Below, piece after piece: positions 249 through 32,454 of a stretch of 35,243 nt of DNA. The notes beneath the pieces were generated by a model. That model did not search any database and was not told the origin of the DNA. It worked only from the letters and a program-made list of their open reading frames with translations. The translations under genes were made by a program, and so were the position numbers. Origin of the DNA: a virus; IMG/VR virus record IMGVR_UViG_3300045988_131290. One strand, given 5' to 3'. Position 1 is the first letter of the stretch. Each line of letters begins with the position of its first letter.

Positions 249-599
249 ATGAATGAAATCAAATTTGAAACACAGGGTGAACGCTTAAAATATATTCGTA
301 AACAACATAAAAAAACACAAAAACAGATGGGTGAGGCGTTGCATTTATCTAGGGATCATATTTCAAGGTTAGAACGAAATCAATGTAATCCTACCGCATC
401 AACGATAGATCTTTTTTGTAGATTGTTTGGGGTTAATAAAGAATGGATACTTACTGGAAATGGAAGAATGGATAGTGATCTAAGCACACTAGAAAACCAT
501 TACGAATTTAAAGAACTGGCGGATAAAATCATTAATTTACCGCAAGATAAATACGATAAGGTTATGACGCTTTTAAAAATATATTTAGAAGATGAATAA
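249..599 (+). CDS. XRE-family HTH transcriptional repressor (cI-like); no S24 peptidase domain
   Basis: HTH_3-like segment KKTQKQMGEALHLSRDHISRLERNQCNPTASTIDLFCRLFGVNKEW. RBS AGGAGG at 233..238 and TATAAT at 217..222. It is the only + strand gene and diverges from the early operon. Confidence 0.85.
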   Translation: MNEIKFETQGERLKYIRKQHKKTQKQMGEALHLSRDHISRLERNQCNPTASTIDLFCRLFGVNKEWILTGNGRMDSDLSTLENHYEFKELADKIINLPQDKYDKVMTLLKIYLEDE

Positions 600-2773: not shown

Positions 2774-3673
2774 TTATAACCAACCTTTCGCCTTTGCTAT
2801 TCTTCTTTTACCTTTATTATTTGAGTGCATCGGATTTTCTAAGAACATATAATTTTTATTATATCCTTCAATCGCCCTTCTAAAGTCAATTGATCCTCCA
2901 CCTGTAAACACTATTAATTTACCTAATCCTAAATTGAATGAATTTTTCATCTTATTCATTAACTCTTTTATGAACTCGTCCTCAAGTTCTTCATAAACTG
3001 GAATAACTCCCGTTTGTATATAATGTCTTACCTCATGTGTTTCTACATTTTGACCATGCTCATTATTGAATTTTGCTTTAACCCTATTGTAAAAATCTAT
3101 CGTTCCCGCTGGGAAGGTATCTTTATTTACAATTCTTTTGTTTTTATACTCTACGACGTTTGTTGTGCGTCCTCCAATATCTATTATTATTACATCTTTT
3201 GCTCTTTCTTCTTTAGGCAGCATATAGTAACTCGAGATACCCTCTCCTACGATTACCACATCTTCAATGTGAATTGTTTTTTCTTCCGTAGTTTTGAAAG
3301 TGAATGATTTTCCGATAAGATCTCCTTTGATCTTGTCGCTTTGTCCTAGTGAATTTATAGGTAAACCTAATATTAATCGGACGTGTTCTCCGTCTTTCAC
3401 TCCCGACTTATCTAGTCCCCAAAGTAAGTTTGGCATATAGTCTTTTTGAGCTTTATTATATTCACCGTCAAAATCTTTTTCGTATTCCATACGAAAAGCC
3501 TTATCTTTATATTCTAGTACTGTTTTCTCGCTTGTGTCTGCTGCGTCGTATTCTTCGAACGTCGATATAAACTGGAAGTCCTCTCCGTCAACTTGTCCTT
3601 TTGTGTTGTAGTTTCCTAAATCTATTATTCTTGTTACTATATTGTTTAATTCTTGTATTAAATTTTTTGTCAT
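2774..3673 (-). CDS. parM: ParM/Alp-family actin-like plasmid segregation ATPase
   Basis: Actin-fold motifs: phosphate-1 IIDLGNYNTKG, phosphate-2 IIIDIGGRTTNV, adenosine VFTGGGS. Confidence 0.85.
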   Translation of the reverse strand: MTKNLIQELNNIVTRIIDLGNYNTKGQVDGEDFQFISTFEEYDAADTSEKTVLEYKDKAFRMEYEKDFDGEYNKAQKDYMPNLLWGLDKSGVKDGEHVRLILGLPINSLGQSDKIKGDLIGKSFTFKTTEEKTIHIEDVVIVGEGISSYYMLPKEERAKDVIIIDIGGRTTNVVEYKNKRIVNKDTFPAGTIDFYNRVKAKFNNEHGQNVETHEVRHYIQTGVIPVYEELEDEFIKELMNKMKNSFNLGLGKLIVFTGGGSIDFRRAIEGYNKNYMFLENPMHSNNKGKRRIAKAKGWL

Positions 3674-3724
3674 TGTATTAATCCTCTTTTCTTTTATTTT
3701 AATTTTACCTGTTTTAAATTTTTA

Positions 3725-4177
3725 TTATCTTTCGTGTTGACGTTCTTCTTCGTCACAAAGTGCTTTAGTCATTTCTTTACGTTCTTTCCAACTTGCATAT
3801 TTGAATTTAGTAGAGTTTTCTAATTCCTTTTTTTGTCTTGCAAACTCTTTAAGGTGATTTTCTCTAGCGTTTAAATCATATATGAACTCGTCGCAGTTCG
3901 TACATTTTTTCCAAAGTCCAATTTCATGGTCGTGTTCTAAATCTCCTTCACATCTTTTACAATCGCTTAAACAAACTTTTGTATATTCTCCACAGTTTGA
4001 ACATTTAGCAAATACTGGTTCGACTTCTTCTGCGTCAACTTCATTTGCCCACTCTGTTAAAGTTCCACCAGTTATTGAATCGGCAATTCCGAATCCAATA
4101 CTTAAAGTTAATGTTGCAGCCATGCAAACACCATATCCTATTGCTATTTTCTTTAGTATCTTTTTATTAATTTTCAT
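3725..4177 (-). CDS. Membrane-anchored Cys-rich (double zinc-ribbon-like) protein
   Basis: N-terminal TM segment IAIGYGVCMAATLTLSIGFGI, then CSNCGEYTKVCLSDCKRC and CTNCDEF. It lies 51 bp upstream of parM with no obvious intervening promoter. Confidence 0.65.
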   Translation of the reverse strand: MKINKKILKKIAIGYGVCMAATLTLSIGFGIADSITGGTLTEWANEVDAEEVEPVFAKCSNCGEYTKVCLSDCKRCEGDLEHDHEIGLWKKCTNCDEFIYDLNARENHLKEFARQKKELENSTKFKYASWKERKEMTKALCDEEERQHER

Positions 4178-4232
4178 TTTTGGTCAATCCTCTATTATAT
4201 TTAGTAGTCGTCTGTCACCCGACTACTCTTAT

Positions 4233-4261
4233 ATAGTAACATATCCTGTTTTTTGCGTCAA
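4233..4261 (-). promoter_or_regulatory. Candidate promoter of the Zn-ribbon/parM/parR operon
   Basis: On the minus strand: -35 TTGACG (4261..4256), 17-nt spacer, TGt-extended -10 TACTAT (4238..4233). Confidence 0.45.
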
Positions 4262-4265
4262 TACT

Positions 4266-4400
4266 TTTCAACGTTATTTTTATGTTTTTTTATGTATAAC
4301 AACGTTGAAATATTGATATTACTATGTTTTAATTCAATTTTTCTAGGATTTTATTTATTATTTTAACGTTTATTTTATGTTTTTTAATGTCTTTTTATGT
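4266..4400. repeat. Candidate parC/operator repeats
   Basis: 10-bp inverted repeat TTTCAACGTT (4266..4275) / AACGTTGAAA (4301..4310). TTTTATGT repeats at 4278, 4288, 4373, 4393, with the variant ttttaatgt at 4382. Spacing within each cluster is 9-11 bp. Each cluster is adjacent to an AACGTT (4270, 4301, 4365). Confidence 0.45.
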
Positions 4401-4416
4401 TTTATACCGTTAATCA

Positions 4417-5526
4417 CTATTTTGGAATTTCTAAACCATGTGCTTTTGCATATTCTGTTATGGCATATCTTGTTACTTGCGATAGGATAACGTCCATACC
4501 CTGTTCTATAGCTAGTTTATACGCATCTTTATACGCATCATACATAGTGTTTACTTCATTAACACAAACGTCCACCACGTCCTCTGTGGCATCTTCTAAT
4601 ACTTCACTTGGTAAATCATAGTCTGATATATCCATTTGCCCCTCTACGTTGCCATTAGGAGTATAATAAATATCTTCTAAAGTAACATCATCATTTATCA
4701 TTGACTCGTCAAAAGCTCCAGCAGTAACTTCTACTGGATTTATTGAATGTCCGTTCTCGTCAAGTCCAGCAGCAGCATATTCTTCTTTTAACTTTTTAGT
4801 TAATACTTTAGTTTGAATCTTGTTTCTATATGTATCGGCATCTTTATTATATTGATCTAATGTTGTTATACCTTTTTCTTTAAGTGCTGCAAATGTAGCT
4901 TTTAAGTACGCATATTTCTTTTTAACGTCGTCAGATCCAGCAGCAGCGAACACTTCTCCAAATACTCCAAGATCAAAGTCGTTAACGTAAGATAATATTA
5001 GATCTTTTGTTTGGGGCATTACTCTTTTTTCTATGTGGCTATTTTTATAAAGATCAAGTAACGCAGTTTCCTTTTGATTATATGTATTTGATTTATGTTT
5101 TGGGGCAGCAGCACACGATTTAAGATCTTTCAGCGGTACTGGTAAAAAATTACCTTGTTCGTCTTGTATGAAGTCTTGTATTCCGTTTCTCTCGCTTACT
5201 GGTATTGGTTTCGCATATACGAAATATTTATACCCGCACATTCTCCCTTTAATATCTCTTAATCTTATTCTTGATATATAACCGAATTGTTCCAGCTCTT
5301 TAAGTCCCCTCGCTATTGAGTCCCTACCGTCTTTTAAAGATGATACTAAAGACTTAACATATATTTTATGTTTACTTGAATTTCTGTACTGTACGATCTT
5401 GCAATAGATCCCTATTGCCTTAGCTGATATATTTGTTTCATTCAAAATTGAATTATCTAATGTAGTATAATTACTTTCGTATGTCGAATATTCAAATGAA
5501 GTTTGGTTATAAAAATTATTATTCAT
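4417..5526 (-). CDS. Replication initiator / replisome organiser with a DnaD-like domain
   Basis: N-terminal winged-helix-like segment SIARGLKELEQFGYISRIR. DnaD/DnaB_2-like segment LILSYVNDFDLGVFGEVFAAAGSDDVKKKYAYLKATFAALKEKG. RBS GAGGAG. Confidence 0.7.
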   Translation of the reverse strand: MNNNFYNQTSFEYSTYESNYTTLDNSILNETNISAKAIGIYCKIVQYRNSSKHKIYVKSLVSSLKDGRDSIARGLKELEQFGYISRIRLRDIKGRMCGYKYFVYAKPIPVSERNGIQDFIQDEQGNFLPVPLKDLKSCAAAPKHKSNTYNQKETALLDLYKNSHIEKRVMPQTKDLILSYVNDFDLGVFGEVFAAAGSDDVKKKYAYLKATFAALKEKGITTLDQYNKDADTYRNKIQTKVLTKKLKEEYAAAGLDENGHSINPVEVTAGAFDESMINDDVTLEDIYYTPNGNVEGQMDISDYDLPSEVLEDATEDVVDVCVNEVNTMYDAYKDAYKLAIEQGMDVILSQVTRYAITEYAKAHGLEIPK

Positions 5527-5594
5527 AGTGCAATATCTCCTCTTTTATATTTCATATATTTTAAATTGTTTTAATCTCGAATCATTCTATGTAC

Positions 5595-5622
5595 TTGCAT
5601 TTATTTTTAAATGTGATATAAT
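5595..5622 (+). promoter_or_regulatory. Strong + strand promoter inside the rep leader
   Basis: -35 TTGCAT (5595..5600), 16-nt spacer, extended -10 TGaTATAAT (5614..5622). Confidence 0.6.
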
Positions 5623-5685
5623 TAAAGTACATTGTTTAAAAAAAAATCTTGTATTAAAATGTAGTGACTCCTTCACTACATTCTA

Positions 5686-5729
5686 ATGATAACACATATA
5701 ACGTTGAAGTCAATATCTCTAACGTTATA
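5686..5729 (-). promoter_or_regulatory. Candidate rep promoter embedded in an AACGTT inverted repeat
   Basis: On the minus strand: -35 TTGACT (5713..5708), 16-nt spacer, TGt-extended -10 TATCAT (5691..5686). The inverted repeat TATAACGTT (5697..5705) / AACGTTATA (5721..5729) brackets the -35. Confidence 0.5.
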
Positions 5730-5746
5730 AAAATTGTTTTAATCTT

Positions 5747-5775
5747 AAACCCGTTCTTAATTGAGCGGGTTTTTT
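5747..5775 (+). terminator. Plus-strand rho-independent terminator
   Basis: aaacccgttc (5747..5756) pairs with gagcgggttt (5763..5772) with one G-U pair, followed by a T-run to 5775. There is no T-run on the minus strand. Confidence 0.65.
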
Positions 5776-5798
5776 GTTGCAATTACTCACTTTTTGAA

Positions 5799-5834
5799 TA
5801 AAAAAGTCCCCCCACAAAATTATTCGTGGGGGGA
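5799..5834 (-). terminator. Strong rho-independent terminator after the 5858..6157 gene
   Basis: Minus strand: tccccccac, loop, gtgggggga, then cttttttatt. Confidence 0.8.
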
Positions 5835-5857
5835 TAAATTTTAATGAGGTTACAAAA

Positions 5858-6157
5858 TTATTTATCTATAGTTTCAAGTTCTTCAATGGCTTTTAACAGT
5901 ACTTCAAATATAGAACTTGGATTGTTGACATTATCTTTATTATCTTTTTTTACATCTTGGATCTCATCATGTATGCGTTGTATTTTTATAGCTTTTCTAA
6001 CATGGCTAAATACATTATCGAAATTATCCCCTGTTTCGTCGGCTACCGCTTGACATATCTTTGATGTTAGTATTGCTAATTCCTCTAATACATCACCGCA
6101 CCCACCGTTTAATTGTATTTCGCATGAACCTTTTTTTTCGATATATGCTTTGATCAT
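5858..6157 (-). CDS. Hypothetical protein (about 100 aa) in a self-contained transcription unit
   Basis: Preferred start is MIKAYIEKK at 6157 with a GGAG RBS. The candidate promoter at 6210..6238 lies inside the longer ORF-track version (to 6253). Confidence 0.6.
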   Translation of the reverse strand: MIKAYIEKKGSCEIQLNGGCGDVLEELAILTSKICQAVADETGDNFDNVFSHVRKAIKIQRIHDEIQDVKKDNKDNVNNPSSIFEVLLKAIEELETIDK

Positions 6158-6209
6158 CTTTTCAATCTCCTTAATTAAAAAATATGTGGTTTGCCTTTCG
6201 ACATTTAAG

Positions 6210-6238
6210 ATAATATCATAGAGACAAATAAAGTGCAA
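6210..6238 (-). promoter_or_regulatory. Candidate promoter for the 5858..6157 gene
   Basis: On the minus strand: -35 TTGCAC (6238..6233), 17-nt spacer, TGa-extended -10 TATTAT (6215..6210). Confidence 0.5.
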
Positions 6239-6465
6239 TACTTTTTTAGACATTTTATCTAATTTATTTAAGATTAAATATCTAGTATTAATTGAATCAA
6301 TAACCTTTTCTAAATGTGAGTAAAAAAGATCTACTTTGTATCAAATAAAATAATATCCCTTTGATAATCTAGTTATATATCGTATCCCTAAAATCATAAA
6401 AAATAGAAAAAAAGAAATTTATTGTTTTCGAAAAAATGAAGTGTCGCTCGGTACGAGCTTACAAC

Positions 6466-6549
6466 AACCGATATTTTAATTTTATAGTATTTTATTTTTA
6501 TTATATTTTATTTTTATGTCGTGGATAAACCGATATAGACATATCGGTT
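6466..6549. repeat. Origin-like element: three AACCGATAT boxes flanking a ~45-bp almost pure A/T tract
   Basis: AACCGATAT at 6466..6474 and 6528..6536, and inverted as ATATCGGTT at 6541..6549. TATTTTATTTTTA is directly repeated at 6488..6500 and 6504..6516. Confidence 0.45.
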
Positions 6550-6635
6550 ATAGGTATATCCGACAACGGTCAGTTCGAGTAATTCCAACGTGTGTACCGA
6601 AACGGAAAGTTCTTCGAGAATCCTTGTTTTTCGAA

Positions 6636-6666
6636 AATAAAAAATAGGGAGATCCGAAAATCTCCC
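6636..6666 (-). terminator. Rho-independent terminator of the lysis cassette / late operon
   Basis: gggagat (6647..6653) pairs with atctccc (6660..6666). On the minus strand a T-run follows (ctattttttatttt). Confidence 0.8.
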
Positions 6667-6676
6667 ATGTGTTTTA

Positions 6677-6964
6677 TCACTTATTTTTATTTAATTTTGT
6701 CGATATTGTTGCCGCATCACCTAAATTATTTGATTTTAAAGCAGACCATAATTCCTCACCATAAAAACCGACACCACTCGAAATTATGGCAGTAGTGAAT
6801 CCCTCAACAGAGGGATCAATCAGTAAACCGATTATTGTCCCAACCAATATACATATTATAGCCTGTAAAGACTCTTGCAGCGGTGGTTGGTATTTAGATA
6901 CTATCAATTTTACGATCATAACTATTACAACGACTTCAAATAAACTTTTAACTGATATATCCAT
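6677..6964 (-). CDS. Holin (small two-TM protein with a charged C-terminus)
   Basis: TM segments FEVVVIVMIVKLIV and AIICILVGTIIGLLI, with a basic tail KLNKNK. Its start overlaps the endolysin stop (TAATG). Confidence 0.75.
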   Translation of the reverse strand: MDISVKSLFEVVVIVMIVKLIVSKYQPPLQESLQAIICILVGTIIGLLIDPSVEGFTTAIISSGVGFYGEELWSALKSNNLGDAATISTKLNKNK

Positions 6965-24869: not shown

Positions 24870-24984
24870 ACTCTCACCCCCTTAATATTTATCTCAAAAA
24901 GTTCAAACGAGCATTTTTTTTAAAGAAACTGCGGCTGGGTTCTTCTGTGAAAACGAAAAATTTTTTTGAAAAGACGGGGGGTAT

Positions 24985-25095
24985 AAAAAATTTACATAAA
25001 AAATTTACATAAAAATAAATTTTACATAAAATAAATTTACATAAAAAGATTTTATATAAAAATAAATTTACATAAAAATAAATTTATATAAAATC
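24985..25095. repeat. Array of 7 TTTACATAAA / TTTATATAAA repeats between the HNH gene and terS
   Basis: Copies start at 24991, 25004, 25021, 25036, 25051 (variant), 25067 and 25083 (variant). Spacing is 13-17 bp. Confidence 0.85.
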
Positions 25096-25566: not shown

Positions 25567-25618
25567 TTACATTGACTTATCTTTTCGATTACATTTCAAT
25601 TACATTTACTTTACATTT
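25567..25618. repeat. Four TTACATT(T) repeats, three of them in 11-bp phase, just downstream of the late-regulator gene
   Basis: Copies at 25567, 25589, 25600 and 25611. They share the TTACAT core with the 24985..25095 array. Confidence 0.75.
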
Positions 25619-26042
25619 ATACTACTAATCTATGACGTACTGCAAATGGTACTAATTTATTAAGTATATATGCTTTACGTCTTGATATATAGTTATCGTT
25701 TAGATCTAATTTGAAAGCAATATCTCTTAATGAATAATCTTTAAAGTAATACATTTCAACTATGATCTTATCTCTATCACTTAATAGTAACAACATATTT
25801 TCTATACGTTTCTTTTTATTAGATAGATATATTATCTTACGTCTTAGGTTCTCTAGTGTTACTGCTGATTGCTCCACACTACTTGATGTATTTACATTCG
25901 GACTTGACGGCATATCATTATACGTTACACCTATTATGTCCTCTGACTCTATTCTTAATTCTAACTCTTTGATCTCTATTTCTATATCTTTATATTCGTA
26001 TAATAAACCCTCTAACTTTAATCTTTCGTTATTTGTACTCAT
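25617..26042 (-). CDS. Late-gene transcriptional activator, RinA/ArpU-like (sigma-70 region-4-type HTH)
   Basis: C-terminal segment LSDRDKIIVEMYYFKDYSLRDIAFKLDLNDNYISRRKAYILNKL. Positioned immediately upstream of the HNH-terS-terL genes. Confidence 0.65.
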   Translation of the reverse strand: MSTNNERLKLEGLLYEYKDIEIEIKELELRIESEDIIGVTYNDMPSSPNVNTSSSVEQSAVTLENLRRKIIYLSNKKKRIENMLLLLSDRDKIIVEMYYFKDYSLRDIAFKLDLNDNYISRRKAYILNKLVPFAVRHRLVV

Positions 26043-26076: not shown

Positions 26077-26372
26077 GCTACACTTTGTAACACCTTTCTG
26101 CTACACTTCAAACCGTTGGTATTACTGGGCTAGAGCCGATTTTCACTGCTACACTTTATATCTAATTCCTTTATATATAAAAAAATAAAAATTAATTAAA
26201 ATATTAGAAGTATAAAGAGAAAGTGTAGCAAAGTGTAGCACCACCCTTGAACCATTGATATTACTACGTTGTAGCCGCTACACTTCTAATTTTCAAAGTG
26301 TAGCAGAAGTGTAGCACTTGATGAAAAAACCGCTGCTGCTGTTGCTATTACTTGGTTGTAGCCGCTACACTT
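26077..26372. repeat. Iteron array: 9 copies of GCTACACTT in both orientations around an A/T-rich core (candidate replication origin)
   Basis: Forward copies at 26077, 26100, 26148, 26277 and 26364. Reverse copies (AAGTGTAGC) at 26221, 26231, 26296 and 26307. The A/T-rich core is 26158..26220. A longer composite motif tattact..g.t.tagcc occurs 3 times. Confidence 0.8.
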
Positions 26373-28218
26373 TTTTAATAAATACTCTAGTGTTCTTTCC
26401 GTCGATCCTTAATACCTTGACGTCGTAACCTTGCTTTTTGATGTTGCGGGTAAATACTGTTCTTCCAAGTGGTTTTAAATTACCTTCTGAACACCAAACG
26501 ACATATCTTTTGTATAGTTCCGTTGACGGTTCGTTCTCGATCTTGAAATCTTCCATGAACTCAATGATCGGATTATTCTCTTTCTCGTATTCTTTTAATT
26601 CCGCTTTTACTTCGTCTACTGTTTCGAAGTCGTTGCGTTTTAGCACTCTTTTTAATCCTTCAAGTCCTAAATTAAGTAAATGTTGCAAACTCTCCGTCAT
26701 AAGCAACTTATCTTTGATAAATGGATCAAAGTCTGCATCACTTGACTTGAATTGTGCATTAAATGGTATTATGACCAATCTTCGCATTAATCCGTTGCTG
26801 GTGTCGTTTATTCTTGGAACTTCATTTGCTGAAAAGATTAGCTTAGATGTATTTTTGAAGTCGAAAGGATCCGCCCCTTTACGTTCAACGTTCACCGACT
26901 CACCTGTTACCAGTTTCTTAAAGATCGAGTTATCGTCAATATATGCACTTGAAATATCGTCCCCTATATTAACCATTTTCCCGTATAATTCAGCGGTCTT
27001 AAATCGCACTCCAAGTTCATTCATTCCTAAAGATGAAATATTGTCCTCCCCAATTAGGGCTTTTAGAACATCAAGGATCGTACTCTTACCGTTTGACCCA
27101 ACACCTGTTAGTATGAATGATTTCCCTAGCTCATTACGACGTAGTAAACAATAACCGATCATTTCCTCGATTATGCGTCGCAGCTTGGAATTATTACAGG
27201 CAATCTTGTCAAGTGTACGATCTAGTACTTCTGATCTTGCTGCTGGATTATATGAAACTGCTATTTTATTCTTAGAAATATAGTTCGGTGAAAAGTCCTC
27301 TAATTCCAATGTCTTTAGATTTAAAAGTCCGTTTTTACAAACCACATAATCAGTACTTGATAGATTTTCATTTTTAGCGATTAATTCAAGGTATGAAATG
27401 ACTTCGGCCCTCCTAGATTTCGTTAATGTTGGAATGTGCTTAATTAATGATCTCTCTATATCCGAATATTTGTCCGAATATACACCGTCAACATAAATAT
27501 GCAGCTTATTATTGATCTTGATTATGTGTTCCTCATTCTTTATAAACTCGGCAAATTTATCGTGCATAAATTGACCCTTCTCATTGTAGAATGACGGTTT
27601 ATTAAATGCGTCGTCCCTCAATATTGTATCAATTTCTAATTTAGATAGAGGATCTTTTAATATGTAATCATTGATCAATCGTATACATTCTCTAATTTCA
27701 TCTTTTACAAATCCATGACCTTGCAACTTTAGTATATATGTAAAGAACGTCTGATTTCGCCCTTCGCCTTCTTCCATATTAAAGAAATCGGGAAGTCGTT
27801 TAACTACGGTTAAAAACTTAGGTAATGGATCTACTTCGTCATTTATTATTAACTCTCGTTCCACCCCTTCCAGTTTTAAAGGTACAACTGCGTTTTTCGT
27901 TCCTATCTTAATATCTACTGTTATTCCAACAGCAGTAGTGACCGCTATTGCATTTCCTTGAACATTTGTATTTAGAAAATAGAAGTGCATACCCCTTTTA
28001 GTCTTTAAAGAATGATACTTTATTTCCAAGTCGTCCAAGATCTGCTTTAATATTATCGACTGTACCCTGTCGTCAACGTCTACCATTATGTAATTGTCGT
28101 CTAAAACCCCACCATACTCGTGGAGGTCCTTCACCTCGTCCAATGTGTAAAATTTTGACCTTCCTTTTATCGACTCTGTTGGTCTTTTGCCTTTCGTTGG
28201 TATGTACCCTTTAAACAT
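26365..28218 (-). CDS. Bifunctional primase-helicase (prim-pol N-domain, D5_N, P4-family SF3 helicase C-domain)
   Basis: Walker A LTGVGSNGKSTILDVL. RRLVIIPF motif. 617 aa. Confidence 0.85.
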   Translation of the reverse strand: MFKGYIPTKGKRPTESIKGRSKFYTLDEVKDLHEYGGVLDDNYIMVDVDDRVQSIILKQILDDLEIKYHSLKTKRGMHFYFLNTNVQGNAIAVTTAVGITVDIKIGTKNAVVPLKLEGVERELIINDEVDPLPKFLTVVKRLPDFFNMEEGEGRNQTFFTYILKLQGHGFVKDEIRECIRLINDYILKDPLSKLEIDTILRDDAFNKPSFYNEKGQFMHDKFAEFIKNEEHIIKINNKLHIYVDGVYSDKYSDIERSLIKHIPTLTKSRRAEVISYLELIAKNENLSSTDYVVCKNGLLNLKTLELEDFSPNYISKNKIAVSYNPAARSEVLDRTLDKIACNNSKLRRIIEEMIGYCLLRRNELGKSFILTGVGSNGKSTILDVLKALIGEDNISSLGMNELGVRFKTAELYGKMVNIGDDISSAYIDDNSIFKKLVTGESVNVERKGADPFDFKNTSKLIFSANEVPRINDTSNGLMRRLVIIPFNAQFKSSDADFDPFIKDKLLMTESLQHLLNLGLEGLKRVLKRNDFETVDEVKAELKEYEKENNPIIEFMEDFKIENEPSTELYKRYVVWCSEGNLKPLGRTVFTRNIKKQGYDVKVLRIDGKNTRVFIKKV

Positions 28219-30093: not shown

Positions 30094-30257
30094 TTACGTT
30101 TTCTCCTTTCTACTTGGTGCGATTTCATTTTCTTTAAATACTGATCCATTTCTTCTCGAGTCAATTTATATGTTGTGACTGGTAACTCGTCTTGTGAATA
30201 ATCATATTTAAGTCCTAATTGAACTGTAAAATTTCCATGTTTATTCGTTTTCATCAT
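30075..30257 (-). CDS. Hypothetical protein (60 aa)
   Basis: ORF with a GGAG RBS, overlapping both neighbouring genes. Confidence 0.5.
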   Translation of the reverse strand: MMKTNKHGNFTVQLGLKYDYSQDELPVTTYKLTREEMDQYLKKMKSHQVERRKRKCQNSI

Positions 30258-31951
30258 TGCTTTACTCCTTTAAAGTCGTCTATACGTTTTTTAGCAAGTT
30301 CAATATACCAACCTTTATCTAATGCCCGAGGACAACTCATACCATTTATGTCGTCGTTCATTATAAAGCACTTATGCGGTGTATTTGCGATTTTCTCTCT
30401 AGTATTGATCTTAACTTTAAAAATACCTCCGTCTGATCTGATCCTTGATGCGAATACTCTAAACGTCTTTTCGTGTAATACTTCGTCGTTATGAACTGCG
30501 TATTTATATTTGCTCGAGATCTTAACAATCTTTTGGAACTCTTTCAATTCGTTACAATCAAGAATAGTCTTTTCAACTGGGATATTATATAGAAAATAAT
30601 TAACTATTGCCTTATTCACTATCGGAAGATCATAGTCAAGTTTACTAAGTTTCTTAACGTAAGATCCTTTTGATTTGTATTTCCCGTTTTCGTCCACTAT
30701 TATGTAGTTGTTCACGTCCTTCTGAATAACCTTACAATATTTATCATGTTCTAACTCGAATCCAGTTCTTCTTTCCCACTCGGAACAAATTGACACATAT
30801 TTATCGTAGTCAGTTGGTTTTTCTAATTTAACAAGAATCCCGTCGGTATTAGATTGTATTAATTTAAGATCATCACCAAAAGCAATCTCCAATTTCTCTA
30901 ATAAGTCAACTATTAACAACTGCCCATTGATACAAACATTATTTGCCATTAGTGGATCATATAGGGGATTATTCTTATCTTTACTGGCCCCGTACGTTCC
31001 ATTTATGACAATCTTTAAAGGTGCTTGAAGTGGGTTCTTTGCTCTTTTATATTGTATTCTAGTATCTCTGATTTCTTCGAATTTCTTCGGCTCTACCACG
31101 TTTCTACTTAGGAAATCGAACAATATCATAAGGCTAGGGTACATACTGGCTATATCGGACATTACATAAAGACCGTCCCCTATGTAGTGATCAATCGCCC
31201 CATGTATTCCACCAAATGCTAAAATATGTTTAACTCCGTAGATCTCTGTAGTTAGTTTTTTATCATAGTCTAAATTGATCGGGTTTAGGTAGTATTCTTT
31301 AATATAATTGTATTTAGATAAACGCAGCGGCTTAACAATAGATATATCGAACTCGTCGTCGTATTGCTGCTTTTGTGCATTTAAGATGATCGCACTTAAT
31401 TGAGCCTTTGTCTTTGACATATAACTTACTGGTAAATTAAAAGCCTTAATCAACCCCAAGTGTGACTCAAATTCTGCTTTACGATTTAAAAATACTTCGA
31501 TCGTTTGCTCTACGTCATGACGACAATATTGCAATACGTCTTTTAATTCTTGATCTGTTAGCTTACGATCAATATTGAATGAAACGGACGTTTCTTTGAT
31601 GTTGTTACCCATGAACCCCTCTAATTGCTTTAAGGAGTGCATAGAAGTCATTATATCGAAATTGATAACTGGGTATTTATTTAATAAGCTCGAGAACTCC
31701 CAACCACCTTTGCCTTCAACTATCATAAAATCATTTATCGCTTTTGGATTAAAGCCGCAAAGAATCGCTTTTAAAATGTACTGATCATATCGCCTTGAAT
31801 TGTACCCGATCCAAATATTATTTTTGTTGGCTTGATATACCTTGTCAAGTGCTACTCTATCATTTATTATTTCGTGTATTTCTTCTCTGTTAGTATCTAC
31901 AATAACAACTAACCAATCTTCCTTAAAGACCTCAAAGTCATAAAAAAGCAT
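30254..31951 (-). CDS. Compact family-B DNA polymerase with a 3'-5' exonuclease domain
   Basis: Exo I YDFEV, Exo II NSRRYDQYIL, Exo III YCRHDVEQT. Pol motif A DIASMYPSLM, motif B KIVINGTYGASK, motif C QSNTDGILV. Preferred start is the ATG at 31951 (MLFYDFEV). Confidence 0.85.
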   Translation of the reverse strand: MLFYDFEVFKEDWLVVIVDTNREEIHEIINDRVALDKVYQANKNNIWIGYNSRRYDQYILKAILCGFNPKAINDFMIVEGKGGWEFSSLLNKYPVINFDIMTSMHSLKQLEGFMGNNIKETSVSFNIDRKLTDQELKDVLQYCRHDVEQTIEVFLNRKAEFESHLGLIKAFNLPVSYMSKTKAQLSAIILNAQKQQYDDEFDISIVKPLRLSKYNYIKEYYLNPINLDYDKKLTTEIYGVKHILAFGGIHGAIDHYIGDGLYVMSDIASMYPSLMILFDFLSRNVVEPKKFEEIRDTRIQYKRAKNPLQAPLKIVINGTYGASKDKNNPLYDPLMANNVCINGQLLIVDLLEKLEIAFGDDLKLIQSNTDGILVKLEKPTDYDKYVSICSEWERRTGFELEHDKYCKVIQKDVNNYIIVDENGKYKSKGSYVKKLSKLDYDLPIVNKAIVNYFLYNIPVEKTILDCNELKEFQKIVKISSKYKYAVHNDEVLHEKTFRVFASRIRSDGGIFKVKINTREKIANTPHKCFIMNDDINGMSCPRALDKGWYIELAKKRIDDFKGVKQ

Positions 31952-31973
31952 AGCTCCCACCTCTCAAAATTTC

Positions 31974-32007: not shown

Positions 32008-32454
32008 TTAACCTTCGTACACTTCCGTTATTTTAAATTGATCATAACCTTTTTCTGTTTTACTGTACTCTAACTCATATTCTAACTCTGATTTTTGTAT
32101 CACAACGTCTATTACTTTAACTAAATCACAGTATTGATCATAGTCTTTAAACTCTATTGTTTCTCCTGTATCTAATGATCTAAGGAATTGATTGGCCATA
32201 TGTATTTGAAACCCTGTCATTATTACTTGATTGAAGAATATTAATCGTCCTTTATATTGTCCGTCTAACACTTTGAATGTACAAGATAACATGACTTTGT
32301 CCCCGTTTTTAGTTGGTTTAACTTCGATCTTAGTAACTGCAACTTCATACTCTCCATGCGGAACGTCCTCAAAAGTATTTTTTTGTGCCTCGTTTATTTC
32401 ACTTTGTATTAACTCTTTATCCATTTCTTGATTGAATTTATCAAATATTCCCAT
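32008..32454 (-). CDS. DUF669-family protein (putative phage ssDNA-binding protein)
   Basis: The pattern FEDVPHGEYEVAVTKIEVKPTKNGDKVMLSCTFKVLDGQYKGRLIFFNQVI is typical of DUF669. Lies adjacent to the ERF gene. Confidence 0.55.
   Translation of the reverse strand: MGIFDKFNQEMDKELIQSEINEAQKNTFEDVPHGEYEVAVTKIEVKPTKNGDKVMLSCTFKVLDGQYKGRLIFFNQVIMTGFQIHMANQFLRSLDTGETIEFKDYDQYCDLVKVIDVVIQKSELEYELEYSKTEKGYDQFKITEVYEG

Follow-up and report, generated by a model that had tools for sequence, protein, structure and literature searches.

An iteron array directly after the primase-helicase gene

We analysed a 35,243-nt stretch of viral DNA (IMG/VR record IMGVR_UViG_3300045988_131290), referred to throughout as the window, and focused on a repeat array at positions 26077-26372 that lies directly downstream of a minus-strand gene for a primase-helicase. 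A preliminary description, made from the sequence alone, had proposed this array as a candidate lytic origin of replication, citing nine copies of a 9-mer, five forward and four reverse, within 300 bp. We found exactly this: the iteron GCTACACTT has nine exact copies in the window, all inside these 296 bp, with forward copies starting at 26077, 26100, 26148, 26277 and 26364 and reverse copies at 26221, 26231, 26296 and 26307. Dinucleotide-preserving shuffles of the window contained 0.14 copies on average and two at most, so that none of 100 reached nine. When one mismatch was allowed, just three additional matches appeared, scattered elsewhere in the window, which is the chance level, and no other 600-nt stretch of the whole window holds more than five copies of any 8-mer.

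The iterons flank an A/T-rich core, as had been claimed, which we place at 26157-26220 (64 nt, 89.1% A+T versus 65.8% for the window). In duplex stability it ranks second from the bottom among all 60-mers there, with a nearest-neighbour free energy of -56.0 against a mean of -74.0 (standard deviation 4.8). Three forward copies precede the core and two reverse copies follow it, with four more copies toward the primase-helicase gene; the reverse copies form two tandem pairs with spacings of 10 and 11 nt. The features, from the gene outward, are as follows.

26365..28218, minus strand: primase-helicase gene, 617 amino acids, identified through Pfam, PHROG, a PDB match, an AlphaFold2 model and Foldseek
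26364..26372, plus strand: iteron GCTACACTT, containing the TAG stop codon (26367-26365) of the open reading frame (ORF) 26365-28218
26307..26315, minus strand: iteron, in tandem with the copy at 26296 at 11-nt spacing
26296..26304, minus strand: iteron, exact copy, partner of the copy at 26307
26277..26285, plus strand: iteron, with a degenerate inverted copy GTTGTAGCC just before it (26268-26276)
26231..26239, minus strand: iteron, in tandem with the copy at 26221 at 10-nt spacing; the pair abuts the core
26221..26229, minus strand: iteron directly flanking the core
26157..26220, no strand: A/T-rich core, 89% A+T, candidate DNA-unwinding element
26148..26156, plus strand: iteron flanking the core on the other side, oriented opposite to the 26221/26231 pair
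26100..26108, plus strand: iteron, exact copy
26077..26085, plus strand: iteron, exact copy, farthest from the primase-helicase gene

The overlap of the gene-proximal iteron with the stop codon had also been correctly described, and the pairing with an inverted copy seen at 26277 recurs at 26355-26363, beside the iteron at 26364. The three copies of a longer composite repeat that had been listed hold in part. Two of them (26255-26285 and 26342-26372) are 90% alike; the third (26111-26156) carries about 10 additional bases between TAGAGCC and the iteron, and the TATTACT part of the composite lies outside the iteron and belongs, as its reverse complement, to another conserved motif, M2, which is described below.

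An Rfam scan of the array region returned only sub-threshold eukaryotic microRNA and small nucleolar RNA noise, which gives no support to an RNA element. On the gene strand, scans of the array for promoters and terminators came back without a sigma-70 promoter or a terminator. An antisense origin promoter, weakly sigma-70-like and composed of TTGATA from M2 as the -35-like part and TACACT from the iteron, was rejected because its -10-like part is lost in relatives with other iterons.

A primase-helicase related to the SaPI5 initiator

Pfam assigns three domains to the primase-helicase: D5_N (residues 229-339), DUF5906, which is the P-loop core of superfamily 3 (SF3) helicases (370-480), and Pox_D5 (546-596). 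The N-terminal 228 residues contain the motifs VDVDD and GMHFYF, invariant in relatives, which we take to be motifs I and II of archaeo-eukaryotic primases (AEPs); a PriCT_1 match was weak and sub-threshold. We conclude from these matches that the upstream protein is a predicted D5/P4-type AEP-SF3 primase-helicase with an AEP-like primase at its N terminus, which agrees with the family to which the preliminary description had assigned it. The sole PDB sequence match found by phmmer was the self-loading helicase PriRep5 (7OLA/7OM0; E 2.6e-42, residues 236-591) of the Staphylococcus aureus pathogenicity island (SaPI) SaPI5. An AlphaFold2 model from 59 homologues (mean predicted local distance difference test score, 81.7) likewise gave 7OLA/7OM0 as best match in a Foldseek search of the PDB (E 1e-21, 28-30% identity, template modelling score 0.69-0.73 on the target), followed by the PrimPol of African swine fever virus and poxvirus D5/E5. 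The modelled C-terminal domain comprises helices 550-557, 565-578 and 586-595 and then a β-hairpin (598-605/608-615), and is a winged helix according to the model. Its proposed DNA-reading part is:

26374..26463, minus strand: proposed iteron-reading tip, codons 586-615, delimited by AlphaFold2 secondary structure and covariation with iteron class

The predicted tip consists of a recognition helix (586-595) and two wing strands (598-605 and 608-615), with R604 and N609 flanking the D606-G607 turn.

We compared this arrangement with SaPI1, SaPIbov1 and SaPI5 (PDB 7OLA, 7OM0, 7PDS). According to the replication passages of PMC9371898, SaPI Reps are initiator and helicase in one, recognize their iterons through a C-terminal winged helix and, for PriRep5 and Rep1, bind their own iteron-bearing origins without ATP. 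The same passages describe SaPI origins as 6-12 iterons located directly downstream of rep and flanking an AT-rich region, with at least two iterons on each side in opposite directions (PMC9371898). The window protein is an SF3 D5/P4-like helicase with a predicted C-terminal winged helix; nine 9-mers lie directly downstream of its gene, the first overlapping the stop codon, and opposed iterons, three on one side and six on the other, flank a near-central AT-rich region. At the level of sequence, the array displays every structural feature of a SaPI origin that could be examined here, and the SaPI-like layout just downstream of the gene that had been noted matches the one given in those passages. 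The initiator is fused to a primase, as in SaPI5, and iteron specificity diverges between relatives. There are also differences: M2 is interleaved with the iterons of the window, whereas the SaPI origin passages of PMC9371898 contain nothing like it; the iteron is 9 bp long as opposed to the 5-6 bp described for SaPIs; and the window protein is just 28-30% identical to PriRep5 over the aligned part. Furthermore, the window is a complete phage with structural, lysis, packaging and DNA polymerase genes, whereas a SaPI is a satellite.

Other replicons can be compared with the array as well. In the satellite phage P4, the α protein belongs to the D5/P4 family of primase-helicases and contacts repeated octamers, the type I iterons of the origin, with its C-terminal domain. 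P4 has two separated iteron regions, ori and crr, a proteobacterial host and a primase domain of a different type, and its geometry is not known to be that of a central AT core directly after the gene. Iteron plasmids and lambda-type origins likewise place repeated initiator sites beside an AT-rich DNA-unwinding element, but their initiator, the Rep or O protein, recruits a DnaB-type helicase of the host, whereas initiator, helicase and primase of the window would be one polypeptide. The ori of Lactococcus phage phi31 is presumably an instance of the non-coding 'ori' element of lactic-acid-bacteria phages, which differ in their hosts and iteron words and in that primase and helicase can be separate. 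For the Streptococcus thermophilus phage Sfi21, PMC6356513 describes a non-coding region with origin traits, located in the replication module of the phage, that gives phage resistance at high copy number.

The layout is kept in relatives with different iteron words

Phage relatives of the primase-helicase found by tblastn include those of Paenibacillus phage Wanderer (52% identity), Bacillus phage BMBtp15 (50%) and Staphylococcus phage PI-Sepi-HH2 (46%). Directly 3′ of the gene, each of them carries a short word repeated in both orientations around an AT-rich stretch, and the words differ (GTAACAGA, GGTTACAG and TGTCTTATG). Megablast of the 2.7-kb region against phage records gave no match, so there is no annotated near-relative among these records. 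Scans of viral and genome collections yielded 128 further loci, chiefly prophages of Clostridia and Bacilli. We then surveyed the 68 non-redundant relatives whose identity is 46% or more, scoring an array wherever an 8-mer had at least four exact copies within 610 nt centred on the stop-codon region, and used 1886 equal-sized windows from the same loci as background. An array with different words was present at the same place in 53 of the 68 relatives, compared with 30 of the 1886 background windows. Both orientations occurred in 47 of these 53 arrays, and in 51 of them the iterons flanked an AT-rich 50-mer (median 94% A+T).

Two further loci are worth recording. The pri31 protein of Lactococcus phage phi31 is 31% identical to the primase-helicase over residues 245-595, and in the phi31 record (L259, AJ292531.2), which has no origin annotation, the 230 nt directly following pri31 (region 3690-3950) contain an AT-rich core surrounded by TGTTCCA iterons in both orientations, in the same design as in the window. 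In locus L186 (~6000-6700), an array of the Bacillus type, with GTAACAGA iterons and M2, is preceded by an ORF of 139 amino acids and by no primase-helicase; by eye alone, this ORF resembles the C-terminal winged-helix region of the helicase and would represent a stand-alone origin-binding domain.

Iteron words vary together with the helicase tip

Closer relatives collected through the protein database differ from the window in iteron and wing as follows.

Window: reference protein; iteron AAGTGTAGC; wing KVLRIDGKNTRVF
L256/L258: 89% protein identity to the window; iteron AAGTGTAGC; wing KVLRIDGKNTRVF
L255: 91% protein identity to the window; iteron AAGTGTAAC; wing KVVKIDGKCTRIF
L004: 83% protein identity to the window; iteron CTTGTAAC; wing KVVKIDGKSVRIF
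L252-254: 93% protein identity to the window; mixed iteron set; window-type wing

The iteron cores are thus GTGTAGC in the window and L256, GTGTAAC in L255 and TTGTAAC in L004. Alignment of these close relatives showed that the iteron sites are positionally homologous and that the word is uniform within each genome and has changed in concert between genomes, which is the pattern expected, from the sequences, of co-evolution with a trans-acting reader. In L252-L254 (4315-4680), GTGTAAC, GTGTTAC, GCTACAC and GCGTAGC stand at homologous positions; this mixed set may be an intermediate in a drift of specificity or may go with a more tolerant reader.

We tested the covariation in 12 prophages of the Bacillus cereus group, whose helicases are 98-100% identical outside the tip. 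On the other side of the array from the helicase gene lies the gene that served as the comparison:

25617..26042, minus strand: sigma-70 region-4-like (ArpU/late-activator-like) regulator, syntenic with the array in relatives and not covarying with the iterons

The 12 prophages fall into three iteron classes (GTAACAGA, GGTTACAG and CGTAAGGA), which agree perfectly with the three variants of the last 34 amino acids of the helicase (adjusted Rand index 1.0). By contrast, comparison with variants of the downstream sigma-like protein gave an index of 0.05, and comparison with the remaining helicase sequence gave -0.1. Individual pairs illustrate this: L013 and L023 have sigma-like proteins that are 98% identical and different iterons, whereas L013 and L017 have sigma-like proteins that are only 68% identical and the same iterons and wing. 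Between L035 and L019, DNA identity is ~95% through the helicase gene, 57% in its last 100 nt, 63-80% in the array and 86-91% at the start of the next gene. Across clades, residue 609, which follows the DGK turn, sorts with the iteron core: N609 occurs with CTGTTAC (15 loci) or GTGTAGC (2 loci), S609 with GTAACC (8 loci) or TCCTTAC (2 loci) and R609 with ATCTT[AT]G-type words, where these counts, like those of the iteron classes, are of loci uncorrected for shared ancestry. Residues 604 and 609 are located on the two strands of the predicted wing, beside its tip, in the AlphaFold2 model. We conclude that, in the sequences compared, the iteron word tracks the last ~34 residues of the helicase, that is, the predicted helix and wing, and neither the rest of the helicase nor the sigma-like regulator.

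The array as a probable lytic origin and the alternatives

We consider it very likely that the array serves as a lytic origin and that the adjacent, presumably self-loading primase-helicase recognizes it with its winged-helix tip, a reading based on sequence comparison and on analogy with SaPIs. It is favoured because nine exact copies, where 0.14 are expected, surround an 89% AT core, because the sole PDB match and top fold match of the primase-helicase is PriRep5, with the same origin geometry, because the layout is kept in 53 of 68 relatives and the word co-varies with the wing, and because the scans of the array gave neither an Rfam match nor a terminator or gene-strand sigma-70 promoter. 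The homology to PriRep5, the conserved arrays and the covariation of the tip support the earlier proposal of a candidate lytic origin. By analogy, the primase-helicase would bind the 9-bp iterons through its C-terminal winged helix, with helix 586-595 and wing 598-615 making the contacts. The oppositely oriented iterons flanking the 64-bp core would let two hexamers self-assemble around or beside it; the core would then melt and the N-terminal primase domain would make primers, after which the DNA polymerase (30254-31960) and single-stranded DNA-binding protein (SSB; 32008-32454) of the phage would take over.

The label 'lytic' fits the presence in the window of a separate set of plasmid-type genes, found by family search together with a repressor:

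2774-3673, minus strand: actin-like (ALP_N/ParM-type) partition protein
4417-5526, minus strand: DnaD-like/HTH_36 replication initiator (plasmid-type Rep)
249-599, plus strand: Cro/CI-type repressor

Several observations weigh against the assignment of the array as a lytic origin. The plasmid-type Rep makes it probable that a second origin exists, and the array and that origin would divide the labour between them. The covariation is confounded by linkage, as the wing codons abut the iterons and recombination would tend to swap both at once; this objection is weakened, although not removed, by the sigma-like gene, which borders the array at its opposite end without co-varying. Among relatives with less than 46% identity (for example, loci L036-L061), an array follows the gene in only 4 of 32, so the arrangement is not universal in the primase-helicase family, and the origins of these relatives may lie elsewhere or use degenerate iterons. 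Finally, GC skew is monotonic across the window, with no inflection at the array, which is uninformative rather than contrary because all genes are on one strand.

The array could instead be an operator or promoter of the downstream sigma-like late activator gene (25617-26042), bound by the product of that gene or by another repressor. It lies directly upstream of the ribosome-binding site of that gene, and the order primase, array, sigma-70 region-4-like gene, HNH gene, terS is kept in Clostridia-type, Bacillus-type and Paenibacillus relatives, although the sigma-like protein of the window itself is matched by tblastn in 4 of 47 relative loci, the downstream gene of the Bacillus group being a divergent member of the same kind. 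We regard this explanation as unlikely: the iteron class is independent of the sigma-like protein (adjusted Rand index 0.05), as the contrasts L013/L023 and L013/L017 exemplify; the promoter scan of the gene strand gave no sigma-70-type site; and the arrays with M2 that accompany VapE helicases in Streptococcus precede genes that, by eye, are DUF3310-, MazG- or DUF1642-like, none of them sigma-like. A dual role is possible, in which the initiator-occupied origin acts as a roadblock to read-through into the late activator gene.

It seems very improbable to us that the array serves plasmid maintenance, whether as vegetative origin for the DnaD-like Rep (4417-5526) or as centromere for the actin-like partition system (2774-3673). 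The window does encode both the DnaD-like/HTH_36 initiator and the ALP_N/ParM-like protein, no integrase was detected in it, and centromeres and plasmid origins are likewise iteron arrays. However, centromeres and Rep iterons normally abut their genes, whereas the array is ~21 kb from the Rep and ParM-like genes, which are adjoined by AT-rich repeat gaps of their own (4178-4416, 5527-5857 and 6254-6676); moreover, in relatives the array stays beside the primase-helicase gene and changes together with the C-terminal tip of the encoded protein. We give still less credence to a packaging site, that is, a cos or pac accessory recognized by terminase or the HNH protein. The array is located ~1.2 kb upstream of the HNH-terS-terL module and terminase-binding sites can be repeated words, but the covariation is with the helicase tip and not with packaging genes, a better candidate lies between the HNH gene and terS (24982-25091), and the array of Wanderer, a linear record, is ~1.4 kb inside the right end, which falls after the HNH gene.

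The design of this putative lytic origin is already known from SaPIs; what goes beyond it is a natural series of wing and iteron specificities and the conserved element M2. The result would place the lytic origin of the phage and name its initiator, which can be used in annotation, in replicons and shuttle vectors for low-GC anaerobes and in origin-decoy (Per-type) phage resistance. The window, L256, L255 and L004, together with the three classes of the B. cereus group, have near-identical helicases whose wing tips and iterons differ at one to few positions. This natural series lets the origin-reading rules of a self-loading SF3 helicase be tested by swaps of residues and bases.

A second conserved motif within the array

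M2 (core AGTAATATCAAYGGTT) is a non-iteron motif placed among the iterons. Its copies in the window are listed here.

26250..26265, minus strand: M2, AGTAATATCAATGGTT, exact match to the family core
26111..26126, minus strand: M2, AGTAATACCAACGGTT, one mismatch
26337..26352, minus strand: degenerate third copy of M2, AGTAATAGCAACAGCA

We counted TATCAANGGTT 50 times in 41 kb of sequence from post-primase regions and 8 times in the other 500 kb of the loci, a 75-fold enrichment, and 42 of the 50 are on the gene strand and 8 on the opposite strand. A looser seed revealed further conserved positions outside the seed (T at -1, AGT at -6 to -4, an A-tract at -12 to -10 and TT at +8/+9), with the consensus AAAnnnAGTnnTATCAAnGGTT. 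Across the aligned close relatives the iterons change but M2 does not. Its typical place is ~16 nt behind one iteron and ~8-10 nt ahead of a pair of them. We scanned viral contigs with the 14-base pattern AGTNNTATCAAGGGTT and obtained 122 sites, 30 of them inside iteron-like arrays; the 92 outside arrays are mostly chance matches, and the array-associated subset alone was used. M2 was located ~100-350 nt from the end of an SF3 helicase gene at 17 of the 30 array sites versus 2 of the 92 non-array sites. Many helicases next to these M2-bearing arrays are of the VapE type (PF05272) with a separate Prim-Pol/PriCT_1 primase and come from Streptococcus prophages; the loci that carry M2 include L013 (+163), L150, L156 and L207. 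We conclude that, judged by sequence, M2 is common to the origins of at least two SF3 helicase branches; it probably serves the putative origin as an auxiliary site for protein binding.

M2 resembles a site for integration host factor (IHF; TATCAA-N4-TTG with an upstream A-tract), but an IHF reading is doubtful: the full IHF consensus (WATCAANNNNTTR) fits only 24 of 71 M2 sites, and neither G8-G9 nor the upstream AGT, which are conserved in addition, is typical of IHF sites. A tblastn search of the window turned up no HU/IHF gene. A reading of M2 as a hairpin (AAACCC...GGGTTT) was dropped; it holds in the Bacillus group only and not in the window. A literature search for M2 strings returned unrelated primers only.

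More tentatively, the origin may be two-layered, with fast-evolving iterons read at the wing tip (604, 609) and an invariant, previously undescribed M2 element of 16-22 bp served by a common reader. Under this proposal, which as a whole we see as possible rather than likely, two or three wing-tip residues would be a natural recognition code that separates near-identical replicons; M2 would be common to D5-like and VapE-like origins in phages of Clostridia, Bacillus, Paenibacillus and Streptococcus; and its reader would be either a host factor conserved in Bacillota or the primase module (AEP/PriCT), which would dock beside the iteron pair and be required for origin firing. If M2 is functional, it would be a previously unrecognized common component of many phage origins in Bacillota.

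M2 or similar words also turned up in other settings. Three near-identical viral contigs (L155 6045-6060, L219 1200-1215 and L223 1501-1516) have M2 ~165 nt upstream of a phage HU-family gene, apparently without iterons, which could be chance or a link to the HU family. The phi31 sequence after pri31 contains a reversed M2 word with one mismatch, AAGCCTTGATA. In the window itself, an M2-like word with two mismatches, AGTAATATCAATATTT (4308-4323, minus strand), lies ~95 nt beyond the stop codon that ends the DnaD-like rep gene, in an AT-rich gap with a sigma-70-like promoter and repeats of AACGTT and ACATAAAAA; in AT-rich DNA such a word may arise by chance.

Genome surroundings

The genes around the array are all on the minus strand. 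They run from an SNF2-type helicase through RecE-like, small endonuclease, Erf-like annealing protein, SSB (32008-32454) and DNA polymerase (30254-31960) genes to a DUF3310 protein, ThyX, two small ORFs, the primase-helicase and the array, followed by the sigma-70 region-4-like regulator, the HNH endonuclease, the small and large terminase subunits TerS and TerL and the virion genes. Replication module and late genes thus meet at the array.

The window encodes terminase, portal-to-tail proteins, a tape measure protein, endolysin and DNA polymerase, and is therefore no ~15-kb helper-dependent island without virion genes, as are SaPIs and other phage-inducible chromosomal islands. We conclude that the element is a siphovirus-type phage rather than a satellite and has only its type of replicon in common with SaPIs. 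None of the scanned ORFs of the window matched an integrase. With its left part, which encodes the partition protein, the Rep and the repressor and also the endolysin, the window looks, by its gene content, like a phage-plasmid with a separate maintenance replicon.

Other repeat-bearing stretches are candidates for further sites. The AT-rich gaps with short repeats at 4178-4416, 5527-5857 and 6254-6676 are a candidate maintenance origin and centromere. Between the HNH gene and terS, positions 24982-25091 contain six ATGTAAA(T)TTT-type words at 13-16-nt spacing; this stretch (95% A+T) is the most AT-rich and least stable of the window and is a candidate cos-proximal binding region for terminase or the HNH protein.

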